Of a stretch of DNA of 64,000 nucleotides, positions 19,287 through 62,209 are shown in pieces. Positions within the stretch are counted from its first letter, which is position 1, and the number at the start of each line of letters is the position of its first letter. The notes beneath the pieces are model-generated. The model saw only the letters and a program-made list of their open reading frames with translations. It made no database searches and was not told the DNA's origin. The DNA is from Escherichia phage vB_EcoM_SA35RD. Location: the sequence record OL960577.1; one strand, given 5' to 3'. A program made the translations under genes and the position numbers.

Positions 19287-19316
19287 ATAGTATCACACAT
19301 CCATGTGTTTGTAAAC
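19287..19316 (-). promoter_or_regulatory. T4-type early promoter
   Basis: Minus strand GTTTAC, 18 nt, TACTAT; -35 overlaps the alt stop codon. Confidence 0.55.
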
Positions 19317-26195: not shown

Positions 26196-26224
26196 ATAAT
26201 AACATAACCTGTACCAAAGTAAAC
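26196..26224 (-). promoter_or_regulatory. T4-type early promoter
   Basis: GTTTAC, 17 nt, TATTAT; 7-bp dyad (TACAGGT/ACCTGTA) flanks the -10. Confidence 0.55.
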
Positions 26225-30090: not shown

Positions 30091-30120
30091 ATAGTATCAC
30101 AACTCTACCATGTTGTAAAC
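30091..30120 (-). promoter_or_regulatory. T4-type early promoter with 9-bp dyad flanking -10
   Basis: GTTTAC, 18 nt, TACTAT; perfect inverted repeat GGTAGAGTT / AACTCTACC around the -10. Confidence 0.55.
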
Positions 30121-31889: not shown

Positions 31890-32188
31890 TATTTTATTCC
31901 TAAGAAAATTTCAAGAATACGAATGTTATGCTCGCGCCGGTCTTTATTAATTTCAGCAACGTTTTTATTAATTGACGTACTTCTAACGTTTGAAGAAATA
32001 AATTTAATCATATGACTTTTGAGTTGTTGCAAATCCAACCCTTTTTCTTTAGCAGCTTTACGAAGAGCTTTACCTGCTTCATCTAGTGCCTTTGCTGCAT
32101 CTTTGTCATAATAGCCAAGTGACATTCCACGACAGATATCAATATACTCATCAGACCGTTTGATGTAATTCTCTAGTAATGTTTTCAT
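31889..32188 (-). CDS. Hypothetical protein (99 aa)
   Basis: ORF with early promoter and SD (GAGGAAATCTAA-ATG). Confidence 0.6.
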
Positions 32189-32215
32189 TTAGATTTCCTC
32201 AATTATCCATAGGAG

Positions 32216-32245
32216 CATTATACTCTGCTCCTGAGAGTTTGTAAA
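32216..32245 (-). promoter_or_regulatory. T4-type early promoter with dyad AGGAGC/GCTCCT flanking -10
   Basis: GTTTAC, 18 nt, TATAAT; near-identical to the ndd promoter except for compensatory arm changes. Confidence 0.55.
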
Positions 32246-32470
32246 CTATTTTACTAAAGATTCAATATACTCGTGAAGAGCTTTAGTCGCTACTGCCCAC
32301 TTATTCTGATATTCATTTTTCAGATTAGCACGAGACTGAACTAACAATCGGTCATTAGTCGGAGGCAAAGATTCTAATCGTTGAATCTGGCGCCCATAAA
32401 TCATAGCCGCCATTTCAGATTCATAGATAAGCCCTTTAATGTGTTCATGCTGTTCTTTAGTCATTGGCAT
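32246..32470 (-). CDS. Hypothetical protein (74 aa)
   Basis: ORF; start overlaps the upstream lipoprotein gene stop. Confidence 0.55.
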   Translation of the reverse strand: MPMTKEQHEHIKGLIYESEMAAMIYGRQIQRLESLPPTNDRLLVQSRANLKNEYQNKWAVATKALHEYIESLVK

Positions 32471-36499: not shown

Positions 36500-38755
36500 T
36501 TAAAGCTTACAAGCGGAGCAATCTTCAGCTTTAGGTGTTTCTAATTCATAGTCATCTGTACCAGAACCATCTCGAGTGTTATGATAGTAAAGGTTCTTAC
36601 CACCAAAGTACCAGAAGTAAAGCAAGTCATCAAGCATTACAGACATTGGCACTTTGCCTTTCTCAAAGACTGAAGGGTCGTAGTATGTATTAGCAGAAGC
36701 AGATTGGCACACCCATTTTAACATGATAACAACTTGTGTCAGATAAGGCTTATTACCTTTCTTAGCGAGTTTCCACGCATAGTCATAAAGACCCATGTTG
36801 TGTTCAATATTAGGAACTACTTGACGGAAATTACCTTCTTTAGATTCTTTAATACTTACCGGGCCACGAGGTGGTTCAATACCATTTGTGCTATTTGAGA
36901 CCTGGCTGCTTGATTCGCATGGCATGAGAGCACTGAGTGTACTGTTACGAATCCCGTGTTCTTTAAGTTCGGCTCGTAGTTCTTCCCAATCACATACATA
37001 GTTTGGGGCTGCGATTTGGTCAATCTTTTTATTGTACCAGTCGATAGGTAATTCGCCTCGAGACCATTTAGTGTCTGAATAATACTCGCAACGTCCTTTT
37101 TCTTTGGCGAGTTTGATTGATGCTTTGATAAGGCCATATTGCAATCTCTCAAACAATTCATGAGTCAAATCGTTAGCGTCTTCATATGAAGCGAAGTTAG
37201 AAGCTAACCATGCAGCATAGTTCGTAACACCAACACCAAGATTACGACGCTTTTTGGCTTTTAAAGCTTCTGGAACCGGATAATCTTGATAGTCTAACAG
37301 GTTATCAAGTGCACGTACTTGTACTTCGGCAAGTTCATTAATTTTATCTTGGTCTTGCCAATCAAATTTATCTAACACGAATGCAGATAATGTGCATAAA
37401 CCAATTTCAGCATCAGGACCATTCACATCATTAGTTGGAATAGCGATTTCACAACATAAGTTACTCTGACGAATTGGAGCTTTTTCACGAATAAATGGAG
37501 TGTAGTTATTCGTGTTATCAACAAACTGTGGATAAATTCGAGCAGTGCCAGAACGTTCAGTCATGAACAATTCAAAGAGTTCTAGTGCTTTGATTCTTTT
37601 CTTTCTGATTGTTGGGTCTTTTTCAGCTTTCTCATAAAGCTCACGGAATTTATCTTGATCTTCAAAGAACGAGTAGTATAGTTCGCCTGACATTTCGTGA
37701 GGGCTAAATAAAGTAATATAATCATTTTTACCAAGGCGTTCCATCATAAGGTCATTAATCTGAATTCCGTAGTCCATATGTCGAATACGGTTTTCATCCA
37801 CGCCTTTGTTATTTTTCAGAACTAATAGGTTCTCTACTTCTAAGTGCCACATCGGATAATACGCTGTAGCAGCACCACCACGAATACCACCTTGAGAACA
37901 AGATTTTACTGCAGTTTGGAAATGTTTCCAGAATGGAATAACACCCGTATGTCGAACTTCACCCACACCGATCTTAGAACCTTCTGCACGAAGCATACCA
38001 ACGTTGATACCGATACCAGCTCGTTTAGAAATATATTCAATAATTGATGCTGAAGTTTTGTTAATAGATTTTAACGAATCACCAGCTTCAATAACTACAC
38101 AACTAGAGAACTGGCGAGTTGGAGTACGAGCACCTGCCATAATTGGGGTTGGCAATGAAACTTGATGAGTAGAAACGGCATCATAAAAACGAATAATATG
38201 TTTCAAACGGTCATGAGTTTCGTCTTGGTGTAAGGCCATGCCAATAGCCATGATAGCAAACTGGGGAGTTTCATAAATCTTCCCAGTTGTTTTATCTTTA
38301 ACTAGATATTTTTCTTTAAGCTGCATAGCACCAGCATAAGTCAGGTCAAAGTCTCGTTCATGTTTAATCTGTGAATCGAGATAAATGATTTCTTCTGCTG
38401 AATATTGAGACAACAGCTCAGGGTCATATTTGCCTTCATTAACACAATAAGAAATATGGTCGATAAAAGCAGGCGGTTCAAACTGCCCATATACATCTTT
38501 ACGAAGTGCAAACATTAGCCCTTTGGCGGCGACATACTGATAATCAGGTTCTTCGACAGAAATCGAGTTAGCTGCAACTTTAATACAAATCTTCTGGATA
38601 TCTTTGGTGCTCATCCCGTCAACAAGATGGGTCTTAATTTCTTCGTACAATTCATATGGGTCAATTTGTGTTCCTTCACATTGCCAGGTCAGAACTTGGA
38701 TAATTTTCTGTGCATCAAAATTTTGGGATACGCCACTGCTCTTAGTTACTTGCAT
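36500..38755 (-). CDS. nrdA: Ribonucleotide reductase class Ia large subunit
   Basis: 751 aa; ATP-cone N-terminus, catalytic NLCCEI / C-terminal Cys pair (CSACKL). Confidence 0.95.
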   Translation of the reverse strand: MQVTKSSGVSQNFDAQKIIQVLTWQCEGTQIDPYELYEEIKTHLVDGMSTKDIQKICIKVAANSISVEEPDYQYVAAKGLMFALRKDVYGQFEPPAFIDHISYCVNEGKYDPELLSQYSAEEIIYLDSQIKHERDFDLTYAGAMQLKEKYLVKDKTTGKIYETPQFAIMAIGMALHQDETHDRLKHIIRFYDAVSTHQVSLPTPIMAGARTPTRQFSSCVVIEAGDSLKSINKTSASIIEYISKRAGIGINVGMLRAEGSKIGVGEVRHTGVIPFWKHFQTAVKSCSQGGIRGGAATAYYPMWHLEVENLLVLKNNKGVDENRIRHMDYGIQINDLMMERLGKNDYITLFSPHEMSGELYYSFFEDQDKFRELYEKAEKDPTIRKKRIKALELFELFMTERSGTARIYPQFVDNTNNYTPFIREKAPIRQSNLCCEIAIPTNDVNGPDAEIGLCTLSAFVLDKFDWQDQDKINELAEVQVRALDNLLDYQDYPVPEALKAKKRRNLGVGVTNYAAWLASNFASYEDANDLTHELFERLQYGLIKASIKLAKEKGRCEYYSDTKWSRGELPIDWYNKKIDQIAAPNYVCDWEELRAELKEHGIRNSTLSALMPCESSSQVSNSTNGIEPPRGPVSIKESKEGNFRQVVPNIEHNMGLYDYAWKLAKKGNKPYLTQVVIMLKWVCQSASANTYYDPSVFEKGKVPMSVMLDDLLYFWYFGGKNLYYHNTRDGSGTDDYELETPKAEDCSACKL

Positions 38756-41243: not shown

Positions 41244-41307
41244 TTTATTCTCCGCTTCACTTTTGATTTGATAGGGCTACTATAACATAACCCTATCCGA
41301 TTGTACA

Positions 41308-41712
41308 CTACTTTTTAAAAGTTTTTTGCAAAAGTTTGATGATTTCGTCGACGTTGGTTTCATCTACGATACAATGGATTTTTGTTACACCTAAAGTTAT
41401 ACCTTCGTTAGTAGGTTGAGGCTTTACTAAATCTACCTCAGTAAAGTACTCAATAAAGTATTTGAACTCGTCAGGATAAATCTCAAAATAAGTTTCAATT
41501 TCACCACCGGCAGAACATACAGTACCATCTTCCATAGTTACACTTACTACGTTTGACGTATCGCTATCATAATCAGGTTCCATTCCGTTTACAACAAAAC
41601 TAGGCCCGTGGAGTTCAATCAATTTTAACATCTTAGCGTTATTATGTGGTGCTTCTTGAACAAAGTCGTCTTTAAATAAAGGGTTAATGATATAAGATTT
41701 TCCGATTTCCAT
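41308..41712 (-). CDS. Hypothetical protein (134 aa)
   Basis: ORF with own early promoter and SD (GAGGAAATCAAA-ATG). Confidence 0.6.
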   Translation of the reverse strand: MEIGKSYIINPLFKDDFVQEAPHNNAKMLKLIELHGPSFVVNGMEPDYDSDTSNVVSVTMEDGTVCSAGGEIETYFEIYPDEFKYFIEYFTEVDLVKPQPTNEGITLGVTKIHCIVDETNVDEIIKLLQKTFKK

Positions 41713-58109: not shown

Positions 58110-58742
58110 TCACAGTACGTTAGTTACAAGGGTAATGATTTCTTTGGACACATTAGGGAAGTCAATGTAAGTATATTTACCACCGATCTTAATCTTAACA
58201 TCATTTTCAAGAGAAGTAAACAGCTTTGATTCAGTTTCTGTCATGTTGTATGCAAAGATTCTAAGAGAACCATCTCGACGAATTTCGATCTGACGAATAC
58301 CTAGAACTCGTTTTGCAAATCGAACTTCCAAGTTACTACGGTTTTCACCAATTTCTTTAACTTCAACTTTATCTTTAATATTTTCAAAAACAAAGTTTGC
58401 TAATTCATGCATTTCAGGAGTAACTCCACGTGCTTTTCTAGTGTTACGTTTCTGAAGAAGTTCTGGAGCATTTTCTTGAGCAAAGAGGTCTGCAGCTTTT
58501 TGGATAATATCCATTGCTTCGCCTGTTGCTACAAGTCCATCACCGGATTTTTCGACTAAACCTTTCTTAATCAATACACCAATGTTAGAGTTAACAACCG
58601 ATGCATTGTATTCTGCTTCCAGAGCTTCACGGACATTGGCAGCAGTGGTGAAGTTGTTCTTAATGATATAAACCATTATTGCAGCAGTTTTTTCATTCAG
58701 AGCGTTTTCAGAAGCTTTGATGATGTAAGTAACTTTAGACAT
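58110..58742 (-). CDS. motA: Middle transcription activator MotA
   Basis: 210 aa; MSKVTYIIKAS…VVNSNIGVLIKKGLVEKSGDGL…AQENAPELL matches T4 MotA N-terminal domain. Confidence 0.9.
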   Translation of the reverse strand: MSKVTYIIKASENALNEKTAAIMVYIIKNNFTTAANVREALEAEYNASVVNSNIGVLIKKGLVEKSGDGLVATGEAMDIIQKAADLFAQENAPELLQKRNTRKARGVTPEMHELANFVFENIKDKVEVKEIGENRSNLEVRFAKRVLGIRQIEIRRDGSLRIFAYNMTETESKLFTSLENDVKIKIGGKYTYIDFPNVSKEIITLVTNVL

Positions 58743-58808
58743 TTTATTTCTCCAAATTAGTATTTGTTTTGATAGGTCTATAATATCATGTTTGAAGCAA
58801 AAGTAAAC
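58734..58808 (-). repeat. Promoter-leader-start cassette, copy A (upstream of motA)
   Basis: About 75 nt near-identical to 59053-59129: early promoter, leader, SD and first three codons (ATG TCT AAA). Confidence 0.7.
58780..58808 (-). promoter_or_regulatory. T4-type early promoter for motA
   Basis: GTTTAC, 17 nt, TATTAT; spacer contains a TGCTTCA MotA-box-like sequence. Confidence 0.55.
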
Positions 58809-58845
58809 TTTATTTTGGGCTCTTTTTCAAAAGCCCTGGTAAAAT

Positions 58846-59061
58846 TTACAAACTCATTTCTTTAATAAGGCTAATAAGCTTTGCCTTTTTAGAACGAAGC
58901 TTTTCTAAATGATGTCCATTTGAACCGCGAACCACTAAAGAATTGATTTCAACTTCTAAGAAATTTAATTCTTCAACAAGTGCTTTACGTGGAGCATTCA
59001 TGCCAGGTTTAACTTTACCGAAACGAGTAGTTGTGTTTTGGGTTAATTTCATTTTAGACAT
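58846..59061 (-). CDS. Hypothetical basic protein (71 aa)
   Basis: ORF with duplicated motA-type promoter and leader; begins MSK like MotA. Confidence 0.6.
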   Translation of the reverse strand: MSKMKLTQNTTTRFGKVKPGMNAPRKALVEELNFLEVEINSLVVRGSNGHHLEKLRSKKAKLISLIKEMSL

Positions 59062-59129
59062 TTTATTTCTCCAATTTGGTTGTTTTGTTTTGATATGTCT
59101 ATAATATCATGTTTGAAGCAAAAGTAAAC
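59053..59129 (-). repeat. Promoter-leader-start cassette, copy B
   Basis: Near-identical to 58734-58808; last 45 nt differ at one position. Confidence 0.7.
59101..59129 (-). promoter_or_regulatory. T4-type early promoter
   Basis: GTTTAC, 17 nt, TATTAT; 6-bp dyad TGATAT/ATATCA around the -10. Confidence 0.55.
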
Positions 59130-59154
59130 TGTTTTGTGAGAAAAATGCACAAAA

Positions 59155-60915: not shown

Positions 60916-61362
60916 TTAATAACTCTGCAGAATGAATTTGAAGTTATCAGCCAGAAGACGGTTCATTTCAGTGAGTGTTTGATATTCTGATGTATGGTTG
61001 CGAGTGAATGCCAGAGCCAATTGACCTTTACCGTAACCAGTAGTCAGTGGTTTCATGTTCTTAGCTGCAACAAAGATTACATCATATTCAATATTGTTAG
61101 TGCCCATGGTACGAGCCAGTTGCGAACGGCCTTGACGAATGTGAGAAAGAATTGCATCCAACCCTTGTTTAGAACGTTGACGTCCTACAAAGAACCGTGC
61201 TGCTACTTGTCGCCAATCTGATGAACCTTTAACAAAGAAGTAAAAACCTTCACGAGAACGAAACTCTTTAGAAACTTCAGAACCATATTCGCCATTACGA
61301 ACTACTGCAACAACTTCACCGCCAACTGCCAGAAGGTCTTTACGAGTTAAATATTTGGACAT
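60916..61362 (-). CDS. ndd: Nucleoid disruption protein Ndd-like
   Basis: 148 aa (T4 Ndd 151 aa); position between 52/ac and denB; own early-type promoter; assigned by size and synteny. Confidence 0.55.
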
Positions 61363-61406
61363 GCTAATTTCCTCAATTGATTAATGTTTTTGTAATCCAT
61401 GAGAGC

Positions 61407-61436
61407 ATTATACTCTGCTCTCAAGAGTTTGTACAA
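61407..61436 (-). promoter_or_regulatory. Early promoter variant (TTGTAC -35) with dyad GAGAGC/GCTCTC
   Basis: Nearly identical to promoter at 32216-32245 but -35 is TTGTAC and dyad arms carry two compensatory changes. Confidence 0.45.
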
Positions 61437-61438
61437 TT

Positions 61439-61639
61439 TTATTCGGCTATATCAGAACGTTCAAAAAGCTCTTCAACAGTTAAACATTCAGTGTCATCCT
61501 CAATAAAGAATCGGGTCCAACACGTTGGGGCGATGCAGTTATGAGTTTGTCCGGCTATAGAAGCTACACGAATAAGCTGCTGACCATTATTCAGGACAAA
61601 TTTTTCACCAATTTCAACATCTTTAAAAAGCTTAGCCAT
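61439..61639 (-). CDS. Hypothetical protein (66 aa)
   Basis: ORF with early promoter and SD (GAGGAATACAAA-ATG). Confidence 0.55.
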   Translation of the reverse strand: MAKLFKDVEIGEKFVLNNGQQLIRVASIAGQTHNCIAPTCWTRFFIEDDTECLTVEELFERSDIAE

Positions 61640-61667: not shown

Positions 61668-61697
61668 ACTATACCATAATCCTACCTTGATGTAAAC
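61668..61697 (-). promoter_or_regulatory. T4-type early promoter
   Basis: GTTTAC, 18 nt, TATAGT; dyad TAGGATTA/TAGTCCTA (7 of 8) around the -10. Confidence 0.5.
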
Positions 61698-62179: not shown

Positions 62180-62209
62180 ACTATATCATAGTCCTACTTA
62201 GTTGTAAAC
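62180..62209 (-). promoter_or_regulatory. T4-type early promoter with 8-bp dyad
   Basis: GTTTAC, 18 nt, TATAGT; perfect inverted repeat TAGGACTA / TAGTCCTA around the -10. Confidence 0.55.

Follow-up and report, generated by a model that had tools for sequence, protein, structure and literature searches.

Covarying stem-loops around the -10 box of early promoters in T-even phages and their likeness to promoter-early stem-loops

Two predicted early promoter cassettes with a dyad around the -10 box

The window (the entire 64,000-nt stretch of phage DNA analyzed here) contains two closely similar promoter-like sequences in which the arms of a dyad around the -10 box differ by matched changes, and the question raised by this locus is whether the dyad is maintained by selection and, if so, what exactly is selected. 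The 3-kb stretch around the locus shares 97-98% identity with many genomes of Mosigvirus (the RB69/JS09/O157 typing phage 3 group), and the minus strand of the window is the early-gene strand. The first sequence (site A) is located in the neighborhood of pseT, pseT.1-3 and the Rz spanins, alc and rnlA; the second (site B) has ndd.1, ndd and topoisomerase gene 52 as neighbors. The 37-nt motif shared by the two sites occurs in the window at these two places only, with an expectation of 0.

Site A (32206-32246, minus strand), the predicted promoter of pseT.1, lies between a 74-aa pseT.2-like ORF, whose stop codon TAG (32246-32248) overlaps the first base of the -35 box, and a 99-aa gene that is annotated as pseT.1 in RB69. 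The -35 box is GTTTAC (32241..32246; equivalently, TTTACA with a 17-bp spacer). It is followed by the 5' arm of the dyad, AGGAGC (32227..32232), the -10 box TATAAT (32217..32222), which is found in the loop of the predicted hairpin, and the 3' arm GCTCCT (32211..32216), which occupies the discriminator just 5' of the expected transcription start; the fold adds a seventh pair, between A32226 and T32217. The right arm is directly followed by ATGGA, and the conserved leader ATGGATAAT, together with the Shine-Dalgarno sequence GAGG (32197-32200) and the ATG of the 99-aa gene (32186-32188, 28 nt past the -10 box), covers positions 32186..32210.

Site B (61396-61436, minus strand), the predicted ndd promoter, is located between ndd.1 and ndd. 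Here, the stop codon TAA of the 66-aa ndd.1 ORF (61439-61441) ends 2 nt ahead of the -35 box TTGTAC (61431..61436; equivalently, TGTACA with a 17-bp spacer), the 5' arm is TGAGAGC (61417..61423), the -10 box TATAAT (61407..61412) again lies in the hairpin loop, and the 3' arm is GCTCTCA (61400..61406). TGGA comes directly after the right arm, and the leader (TGGATTAC..., 61360..61399) continues through the Shine-Dalgarno sequence GAGG (61371-61374) to the ATG of ndd (61360-61362, 44 nt past the -10 box). The -35 boxes are assigned from sequence and promoter match and the -10 boxes from sequence, promoter match and fold; the arms of both sites are assigned from sequence, fold and the family alignment described below.

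The match to the sigma-70 consensus extends to 11 of 12 positions in site A (TTTACA-17-TATAAT) and to 10 of 12 in site B (TGTACA-17-TATAAT), and the TGn extended -10 motif is absent from both. The GTTTAC-type -35 box, the 17-bp spacer, the TATAAT-type -10 box, the A/T-rich upstream region and the location on the early strand all correspond to the makeup of T4 early promoters (Pe), so that, judging from sequence, both sites are sigma-70-type early promoters with a predicted activity and a predicted transcription start. As RNA, site A is predicted to fold into a 7-bp stem (-12.2 kcal/mol, z = -2.8 against shuffled sequences) and site B into an 8-bp stem (-13.9 kcal/mol, z = -3.5). In both stems, the closing A-U pair takes the last T of TATAAT, and a third difference between the sites, C to T beside the left arm, makes the stem of site B one pair longer than that of site A.

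Both promoter sequences on the minus strand, and the change of the -35 box from GTTTAC in site A to TTGTAC in site B, are as originally described; the identity between the sites, put at about 90% in the original prediction, is by count 34 of 41 positions, or 83%. The two differences in each arm are indeed exactly complementary, with A-T and G-C pairs of site A replaced by G-C and A-T pairs in site B. The contention that such paired changes are improbable by chance holds as well: when 7 random substitutions are introduced into the 41 nt of site A, the stem stays intact with two or more compensated pairs at P = 2.8e-4.

Covariation within the family and stems at other early promoters

Further members of the family were sought in the window, RB69 (1-50 kb), eight small loci and three whole genomes fetched without annotation, namely Tequatrovirus NIC06P2, Mosigvirus TH12 and Gaprivervirus TH44, with the relatives taken from the GenBank phage collection; in IMG/VR, no sequence matched the exact pattern of the motif, and protein-anchored locus searches identified only 4 near-identical loci. 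The family, which has the general form (G/T)T(T/G)TAC-aaactct-N7-agagTATAAT-N7-(t)gga, comprises 16 distinct sequences and spans four T-even genera, Mosigvirus, Tequatrovirus, Gaprivervirus and Dhakavirus. Two copies are present in the window, four in TH12 and four in TH44, and other members come from T4 motB, e.6 and Dhakavirus. The arms are TGGGACC/GGTCCCG in the region upstream of T4 motB, TGGGAGT/ACTCCCA at the T4-like e.6 and CGAGAGA/TCTCTCG at the ORF of the gene 55 region in RB69.

An alignment of the 16 sequences reveals an eight-pair helix in which 95% of the cells are paired and six of the eight pairs show a two-sided change, with up to five pair types per position. None of 500 column shuffles matches the observed covariation, and pairing falls to about 40% when the partner columns are slid by 1-3 positions. 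In an 11-sequence alignment, 93% of the cells are paired and six of the eight pairs are altered on both sides, again with 0 of 500 shuffles matching. Orthologous promoters, defined via homologous downstream genes, change in the same compensated manner: the ndd promoter of Gaprivervirus (TGGGGTC/GACCCCA) has three compensated pairs and no broken pair compared to Mosigvirus, the e.6 promoters of Mosigvirus and Tequatrovirus differ by two compensated pairs, and the promoters of the gene 55-region ORF in RB69 and TH12 differ by two compensated pairs and one G.U. A counter-example is the motB orthologue in TH44 (105945), with an uncompensated U.U in the middle of the stem. The alignment of homologous T-even promoters, which had been proposed originally as a check, thus comes out in favor of covariation; the dyad is real, non-random and under selection.

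Nearly all the variation in the family is confined to the arms, whereas the spacer, the loop and the leader are almost invariant across the four genera. That the arms outpace their flanks could reflect fast compensatory turnover, perhaps aided by template switching, or homogenization of the flanks by recombination.

The stems are not confined to this family. Candidate early promoters were identified as GTTTAC with at most one mismatch, a spacer of 17-19 nt, TAnnnT, and a Shine-Dalgarno sequence with a start codon downstream. The three whole genomes contain 36, 49 and 33 such candidates on the early strand and 0-3 on the other strand. For each candidate, the spacer was matched to the 14 nt that follow the -10 box, the longest perfect stem that the two can form was recorded, and chimeras that combine the left and right halves of different promoters served as the control; the stem scan was also run on the window and RB69. 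Stems of at least 7 bp bracket the -10 box in 6, 7 and 11 promoters, compared to 0.5, 1.2 and 1.6 expected from the chimeras (permutation p of at most 2e-4), that is, in 14-33% of the early promoters of the three genomes, each from a different genus, compared to about 1% of random positions with the same geometry. The real promoters are predicted to fold with energies of -7.3, -7.3 and -9.3 kcal/mol, compared to -4.4, -4.6 and -5.4 kcal/mol for the chimeras. The loop of the bracketing hairpins is mostly about 10 nt long, and the arms are unrelated between promoters (e.g., GGTAGAGTT/AACTCTACC, TAGGACT/AGTCCTA, TACAGGT/ACCTGTA and GATGGGATA/TATCCCATC).

Six other early promoters on the minus strand of the window have dyads that bracket the -10 box (62180-62209, 61668-61697, 41279-41308, 30091-30120, 26196-26224 and 19287-19316), with the arms TAGGACT/AGTCCTA, TAGGAtT/AGTCCTA, TAGGGtT/AGCCCTA (with a U.G pair), TGGTAGAGTT/AACTCTACCA (10 bp), TTGGTACAGGT/ACCTGTAtCAA (11 bp, one G.U) and GGATG/CATCC. 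[quoted passage not shown]

The strand on which pairing is maintained

The imperfections of the stems are asymmetric between the strands. Internal mismatches between Watson-Crick pairs comprise five G:T, one A:A and no A:C, and the family alignment includes seven G.U or U.G cells, with C.A cells at the outermost position only. When G:T pairs are allowed, the real stems in the three genomes become longer by 1.38, 1.05 and 0.76 bp, compared to 0.31, 0.33 and 0.12 bp when A:C is allowed instead; in the chimeras, G:T and A:C lengthen the stems to about the same extent. Because the flaws of the stems, read on the sense strand, are G:T with hardly any A:C, the conserved object is a sense-strand hairpin and not a DNA palindrome or operator. 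The proposal that the dyad is under functional selection is accordingly upheld with respect to pairing, the selection on which is apparent from the covariation, but not with respect to its object: what is selected is the sense-strand hairpin, most likely as RNA, rather than a double-stranded promoter dyad.

The same distinction applies to the alleles of site A. Equally frequent variants changed in a single arm had been named as evidence against the dyad, and such a variant exists: GGGAGC, with a G.U pair, is found in 69 database records, including RB69, and AGGAGC, with an A-U pair, in 52. This distribution counts against a DNA palindrome, but the G.U wobble keeps the hairpin; in a Gaprivervirus copy, the variable pair is G-C, which completes an A-U/G.U/G-C series.

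In a family member from TH12 (128459-128492, plus strand), the -35 box is lost (ACGCAC) and the 7-bp stem is kept with one G.U, which argues that the hairpin is maintained independently of the promoter. In the RB69 orthologue of this member, the -35 box is intact (GTATAC) and the arms differ by compensated changes.

An operator, at which a dimeric protein of the phage or the host would bind half-sites on either side of the -10 box and repress transcription from the early promoter, e.g., in the early shut-off of T4, would be compatible with the overlap between the dyad and the -10 box, a frequent site of repressor binding, and the mechanism of early-promoter shut-off is called unknown in a review. 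A protein that reads the sequence, however, predicts the opposite of four observations: the half-sites are not conserved (within one family, six of the seven arm positions vary with a matching change in the partner), other early promoters have the same geometry with unrelated arms, the imperfections are G:T on one strand only, and the more frequent allele of site A is no longer palindromic. The A/B family shows no conserved half-site that would be symmetric on both strands. Thus, a DNA operator is contradicted by these observations and is extremely improbable.

Complementary changes might also accumulate with no selection involved, if template switching within a quasi-palindrome copies a change from one arm to the other and gene conversion spreads the copies; mutagenesis at quasi-palindromes is the subject of a review (PMC7202029). 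Under the Ripley model of template-switch quasi-palindrome mutagenesis, which was reportedly first described in T4, a single step yields exactly complementary double changes; in general, the recombination and replication of T4-type phages would favor this process, and the arms do change faster than the invariant flanks. Template switching, however, makes the arms perfectly complementary, whereas stable G.U intermediates are common, as in the site A series, and the strand asymmetry is left unexplained. Furthermore, unrelated arms are enriched over the background at one and the same position in three genera, so that something must create and keep the dyads. Template switching as the sole source of the pairing is therefore highly unlikely, although it may speed compensation.

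The molecule that folds is most likely RNA; the G:T bias fits single-stranded non-template DNA equally. With the 3' arm located at -6 to -1, the promoter geometry implies that transcripts started at the embedded promoter should lack the hairpin and that read-through RNA alone should carry it. The literature search yielded nothing usable on transcript 5'/3' end maps for these phages.

Gene junctions, predicted role and comparison with known systems

[quoted passage not shown] In agreement with the association of PeSLs with insertions and deletions, the pseT.2/pseT.1 junction is found in three states. In Tequatrovirus NIC06P2 (L007, ~38130-38140, minus strand), the genes abut as TAAATG and the element is absent; Mosigviruses have the cassette alone; and Gaprivervirus TH44 (146945-147465) has the cassette together with a 153-aa ORF. 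Between ndd.1 and ndd, TH44 possesses an extra 114-aa ORF that is flanked by two family members. The ndd.1/ndd gap of NIC06P2 (~68540-68590, minus strand) contains no early promoter and has a G/C-rich hairpin, GGCCGTGtgtattCATGCGGCC, followed by a Shine-Dalgarno sequence and ATG. Elsewhere in the window, two cassettes of promoter plus leader, each about 85 nt long and nearly identical to the other (84-93%), lie 320 bp apart (58734-58817 and 59053-59138) and flank a 71-aa ORF (58846-59061, minus strand) just downstream of topoisomerase gene 52, an arrangement (58734-59138) that is as expected for an excisable PeSL cassette.

The location at such junctions is relevant to another reading, namely that a single-stranded sense-DNA hairpin or a cruciform is a target or pause site for phage recombination or replication, i.e., an active part of PeSL shuffling. 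Sense-strand DNA tolerates G:T as RNA does, and in the RB49 work the stem-loop is speculated to be a target of a recombination protein, with one crossover mapped inside the loop (PMC2839356). A cruciform, however, requires both strands to fold, which is hard to reconcile with the A:C mismatches that arise on the other strand, and stems of 6-8 bp with loops of 8-10 nt would be expected from general DNA physical chemistry to extrude poorly. Moreover, the orientation of the elements strictly follows the direction of transcription, and homology of the flanks alone is reported to be enough for T4 recombination (PMC2839356, citing Singer 1982). Taken together, an active DNA hairpin is an unlikely explanation.

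What is observed here, namely a promoter-like sequence, covariation in the hairpin, a bias toward the sense strand, a dispersed family and its association with indels, is best compatible with the hypothesis that sites A and B are PeSL-type cassettes in which pairing of the sense-strand hairpin is selected and which act, most likely, on read-through early RNA; we consider this hypothesis to be quite probable. Each cassette would comprise about 60 bp and span the gap between two early genes, in the order of an upstream stop in an A/T-rich stretch, a T4-type early promoter recognized by the host sigma-70 polymerase, the hairpin, a short conserved leader, a Shine-Dalgarno sequence and ATG. One arm of the hairpin, at about -23 to -17, would be part of the spacer and the other, at -6 to -1, part of the discriminator, with the -10 box in the loop, and, with the 3' arm ending at the expected start, the hairpin would form solely in transcripts begun further upstream. 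Selection on the sense strand would maintain pairing rather than sequence. The most likely job of the hairpin would be to act on the read-through early RNA, either by attenuation or pausing, as in the published PeSL proposal, or as a structure between cistrons by which RNA ends are protected or defined. At the same time, the conserved flanks might serve as homology patches by which phage recombination moves promoter-plus-gene cassettes.

Alternatively, the hairpin may control the promoter itself, by folding as the polymerase from upstream crosses it, with pausing or release at the embedded start and insulation from occlusion, or by presenting a folded sense strand that a phage factor reads in early-promoter shut-off. 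Such promoter control is very unlikely; if true, about one third of the early promoters in four T-even genera would share a control element that is based on structure and not on sequence.

Among the known systems, T4 early promoters, such as that of motB, share with the two sites the GTTTAC -35 box, the 17-bp spacer, TATAAT and the A/T-rich upstream region, and the motB upstream region is itself a member of the same 'aaactct-N7-agagTATAAT-N7' family. Reviews of T4 early promoters attribute the extra conserved positions to polymerase contacts and not to a hairpin, and the MotB paper is silent on the structure of the motB promoter.

T4 genes e, soc, 49 and I-TevI have hairpins with an internal promoter that hide the ribosome-binding site in long transcripts. 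As in sites A and B, the promoter lies inside the stem-loop, and the structure is present in read-through RNA and absent from internally started RNA. In the T4 genes, the 3' arm covers the Shine-Dalgarno sequence or the AUG, whereas at sites A and B the Shine-Dalgarno sequence is unpaired, about 10-25 nt past the 3' arm. Occlusion of the Shine-Dalgarno sequence by the hairpin was considered and is ruled out, given that the 3' arm ends at least 10 nt before it. A RegB target, suggested by the GGAG in the arm of site A, is ruled out as well because site B and most arms of the family lack GGAG.

With rho-independent terminators and REP-like intercistronic stabilizers, the two sites have in common a stable hairpin between cistrons of a polycistronic RNA; a stabilizing role would be conceivable. 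Unlike rho-independent terminators, sites A and B lack a U-tract and are not canonical terminators: no terminator-like site is detected at either of them, and of the 35 stems of at least 6 bp that bracket the -10 box, A and B included, not one has five or more T in the next 8 nt, the maximum being three. Thus, classical intrinsic termination is not supported and is doubtful for the T-even type, in which the hairpin may instead cause pausing or attenuation without release, or protect RNA ends. Searches of the 64,000-nt window identified no Rfam family at the gathering score and no tRNA gene.

The closest likeness is to PeSLs. [quoted passage not shown] The class was extended to T4/PST and KVP40/nt-1, with T4-group stems often of the form AGNA...TCNT and the T4/PST stem-loops placed just upstream of the promoter and not around the -10 box (Comeau 2014, PMC4122927). 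With the T4/PST stem-loops drawn in that position, the location bracketing the -10 box appears, within the available text of these papers, to be previously unreported for T-even phages proper. The notion, taken from a figure legend of 2014, that PeSL stem-loops are always upstream of the -35 box was dropped, given that the 2010 paper describes positions in the spacer and overlapping the -10 box; the class of promoters with a hairpin in the spacer corresponds to the subclass 'between -35 and -10'. Neither covariation statistics nor strand bias is found in the available text of PMC2839356 and PMC4122927.

At sites A and B, the cassette occupies the intergenic space between the stop codon of the preceding gene, in an A/T-rich context, and the Shine-Dalgarno sequence and ATG of the next, a sigma-70-type early promoter is predicted, a 7-8 bp stem has the -10 box in its loop, and copies of the family precede unrelated genes at non-orthologous intergenic sites; the three states of the pseT.2/pseT.1 junction and the extra ORF at ndd.1/ndd add the indel association. 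The published PeSLs and the elements described here are alike in being intergenic cassettes that are repeated genome-wide, tolerate G-T pairs, occur at indel or replacement junctions and enclose ORFs between two copies. They differ in that the RB49 and phi1 elements have stems of G-runs and C-runs and near-consensus TTGACA promoters, compared to the mixed-sequence arms and the GTTTAC type of sites A and B; with no U-tract after the A and B stems, the terminator role of PeSLs is only putative for the two sites. By all these sequence features, sites A and B are PeSLs in Mosigvirus, members of an already described class; the phenomenon is neither confined to the two sites nor new but is the PeSL architecture of T4-type phages, and the current understanding is not overturned. 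For annotation, such short intergenic cassettes are recognizable as promoter/hairpin modules that mark sites of small-gene gain and loss in T-even phages. What the T-even type adds to the PeSL picture is clean covariation, a strand bias pointing to RNA and the lack of U-tracts, which together make the role of the hairpin, be it attenuation, pausing or protection of RNA ends, easily testable.
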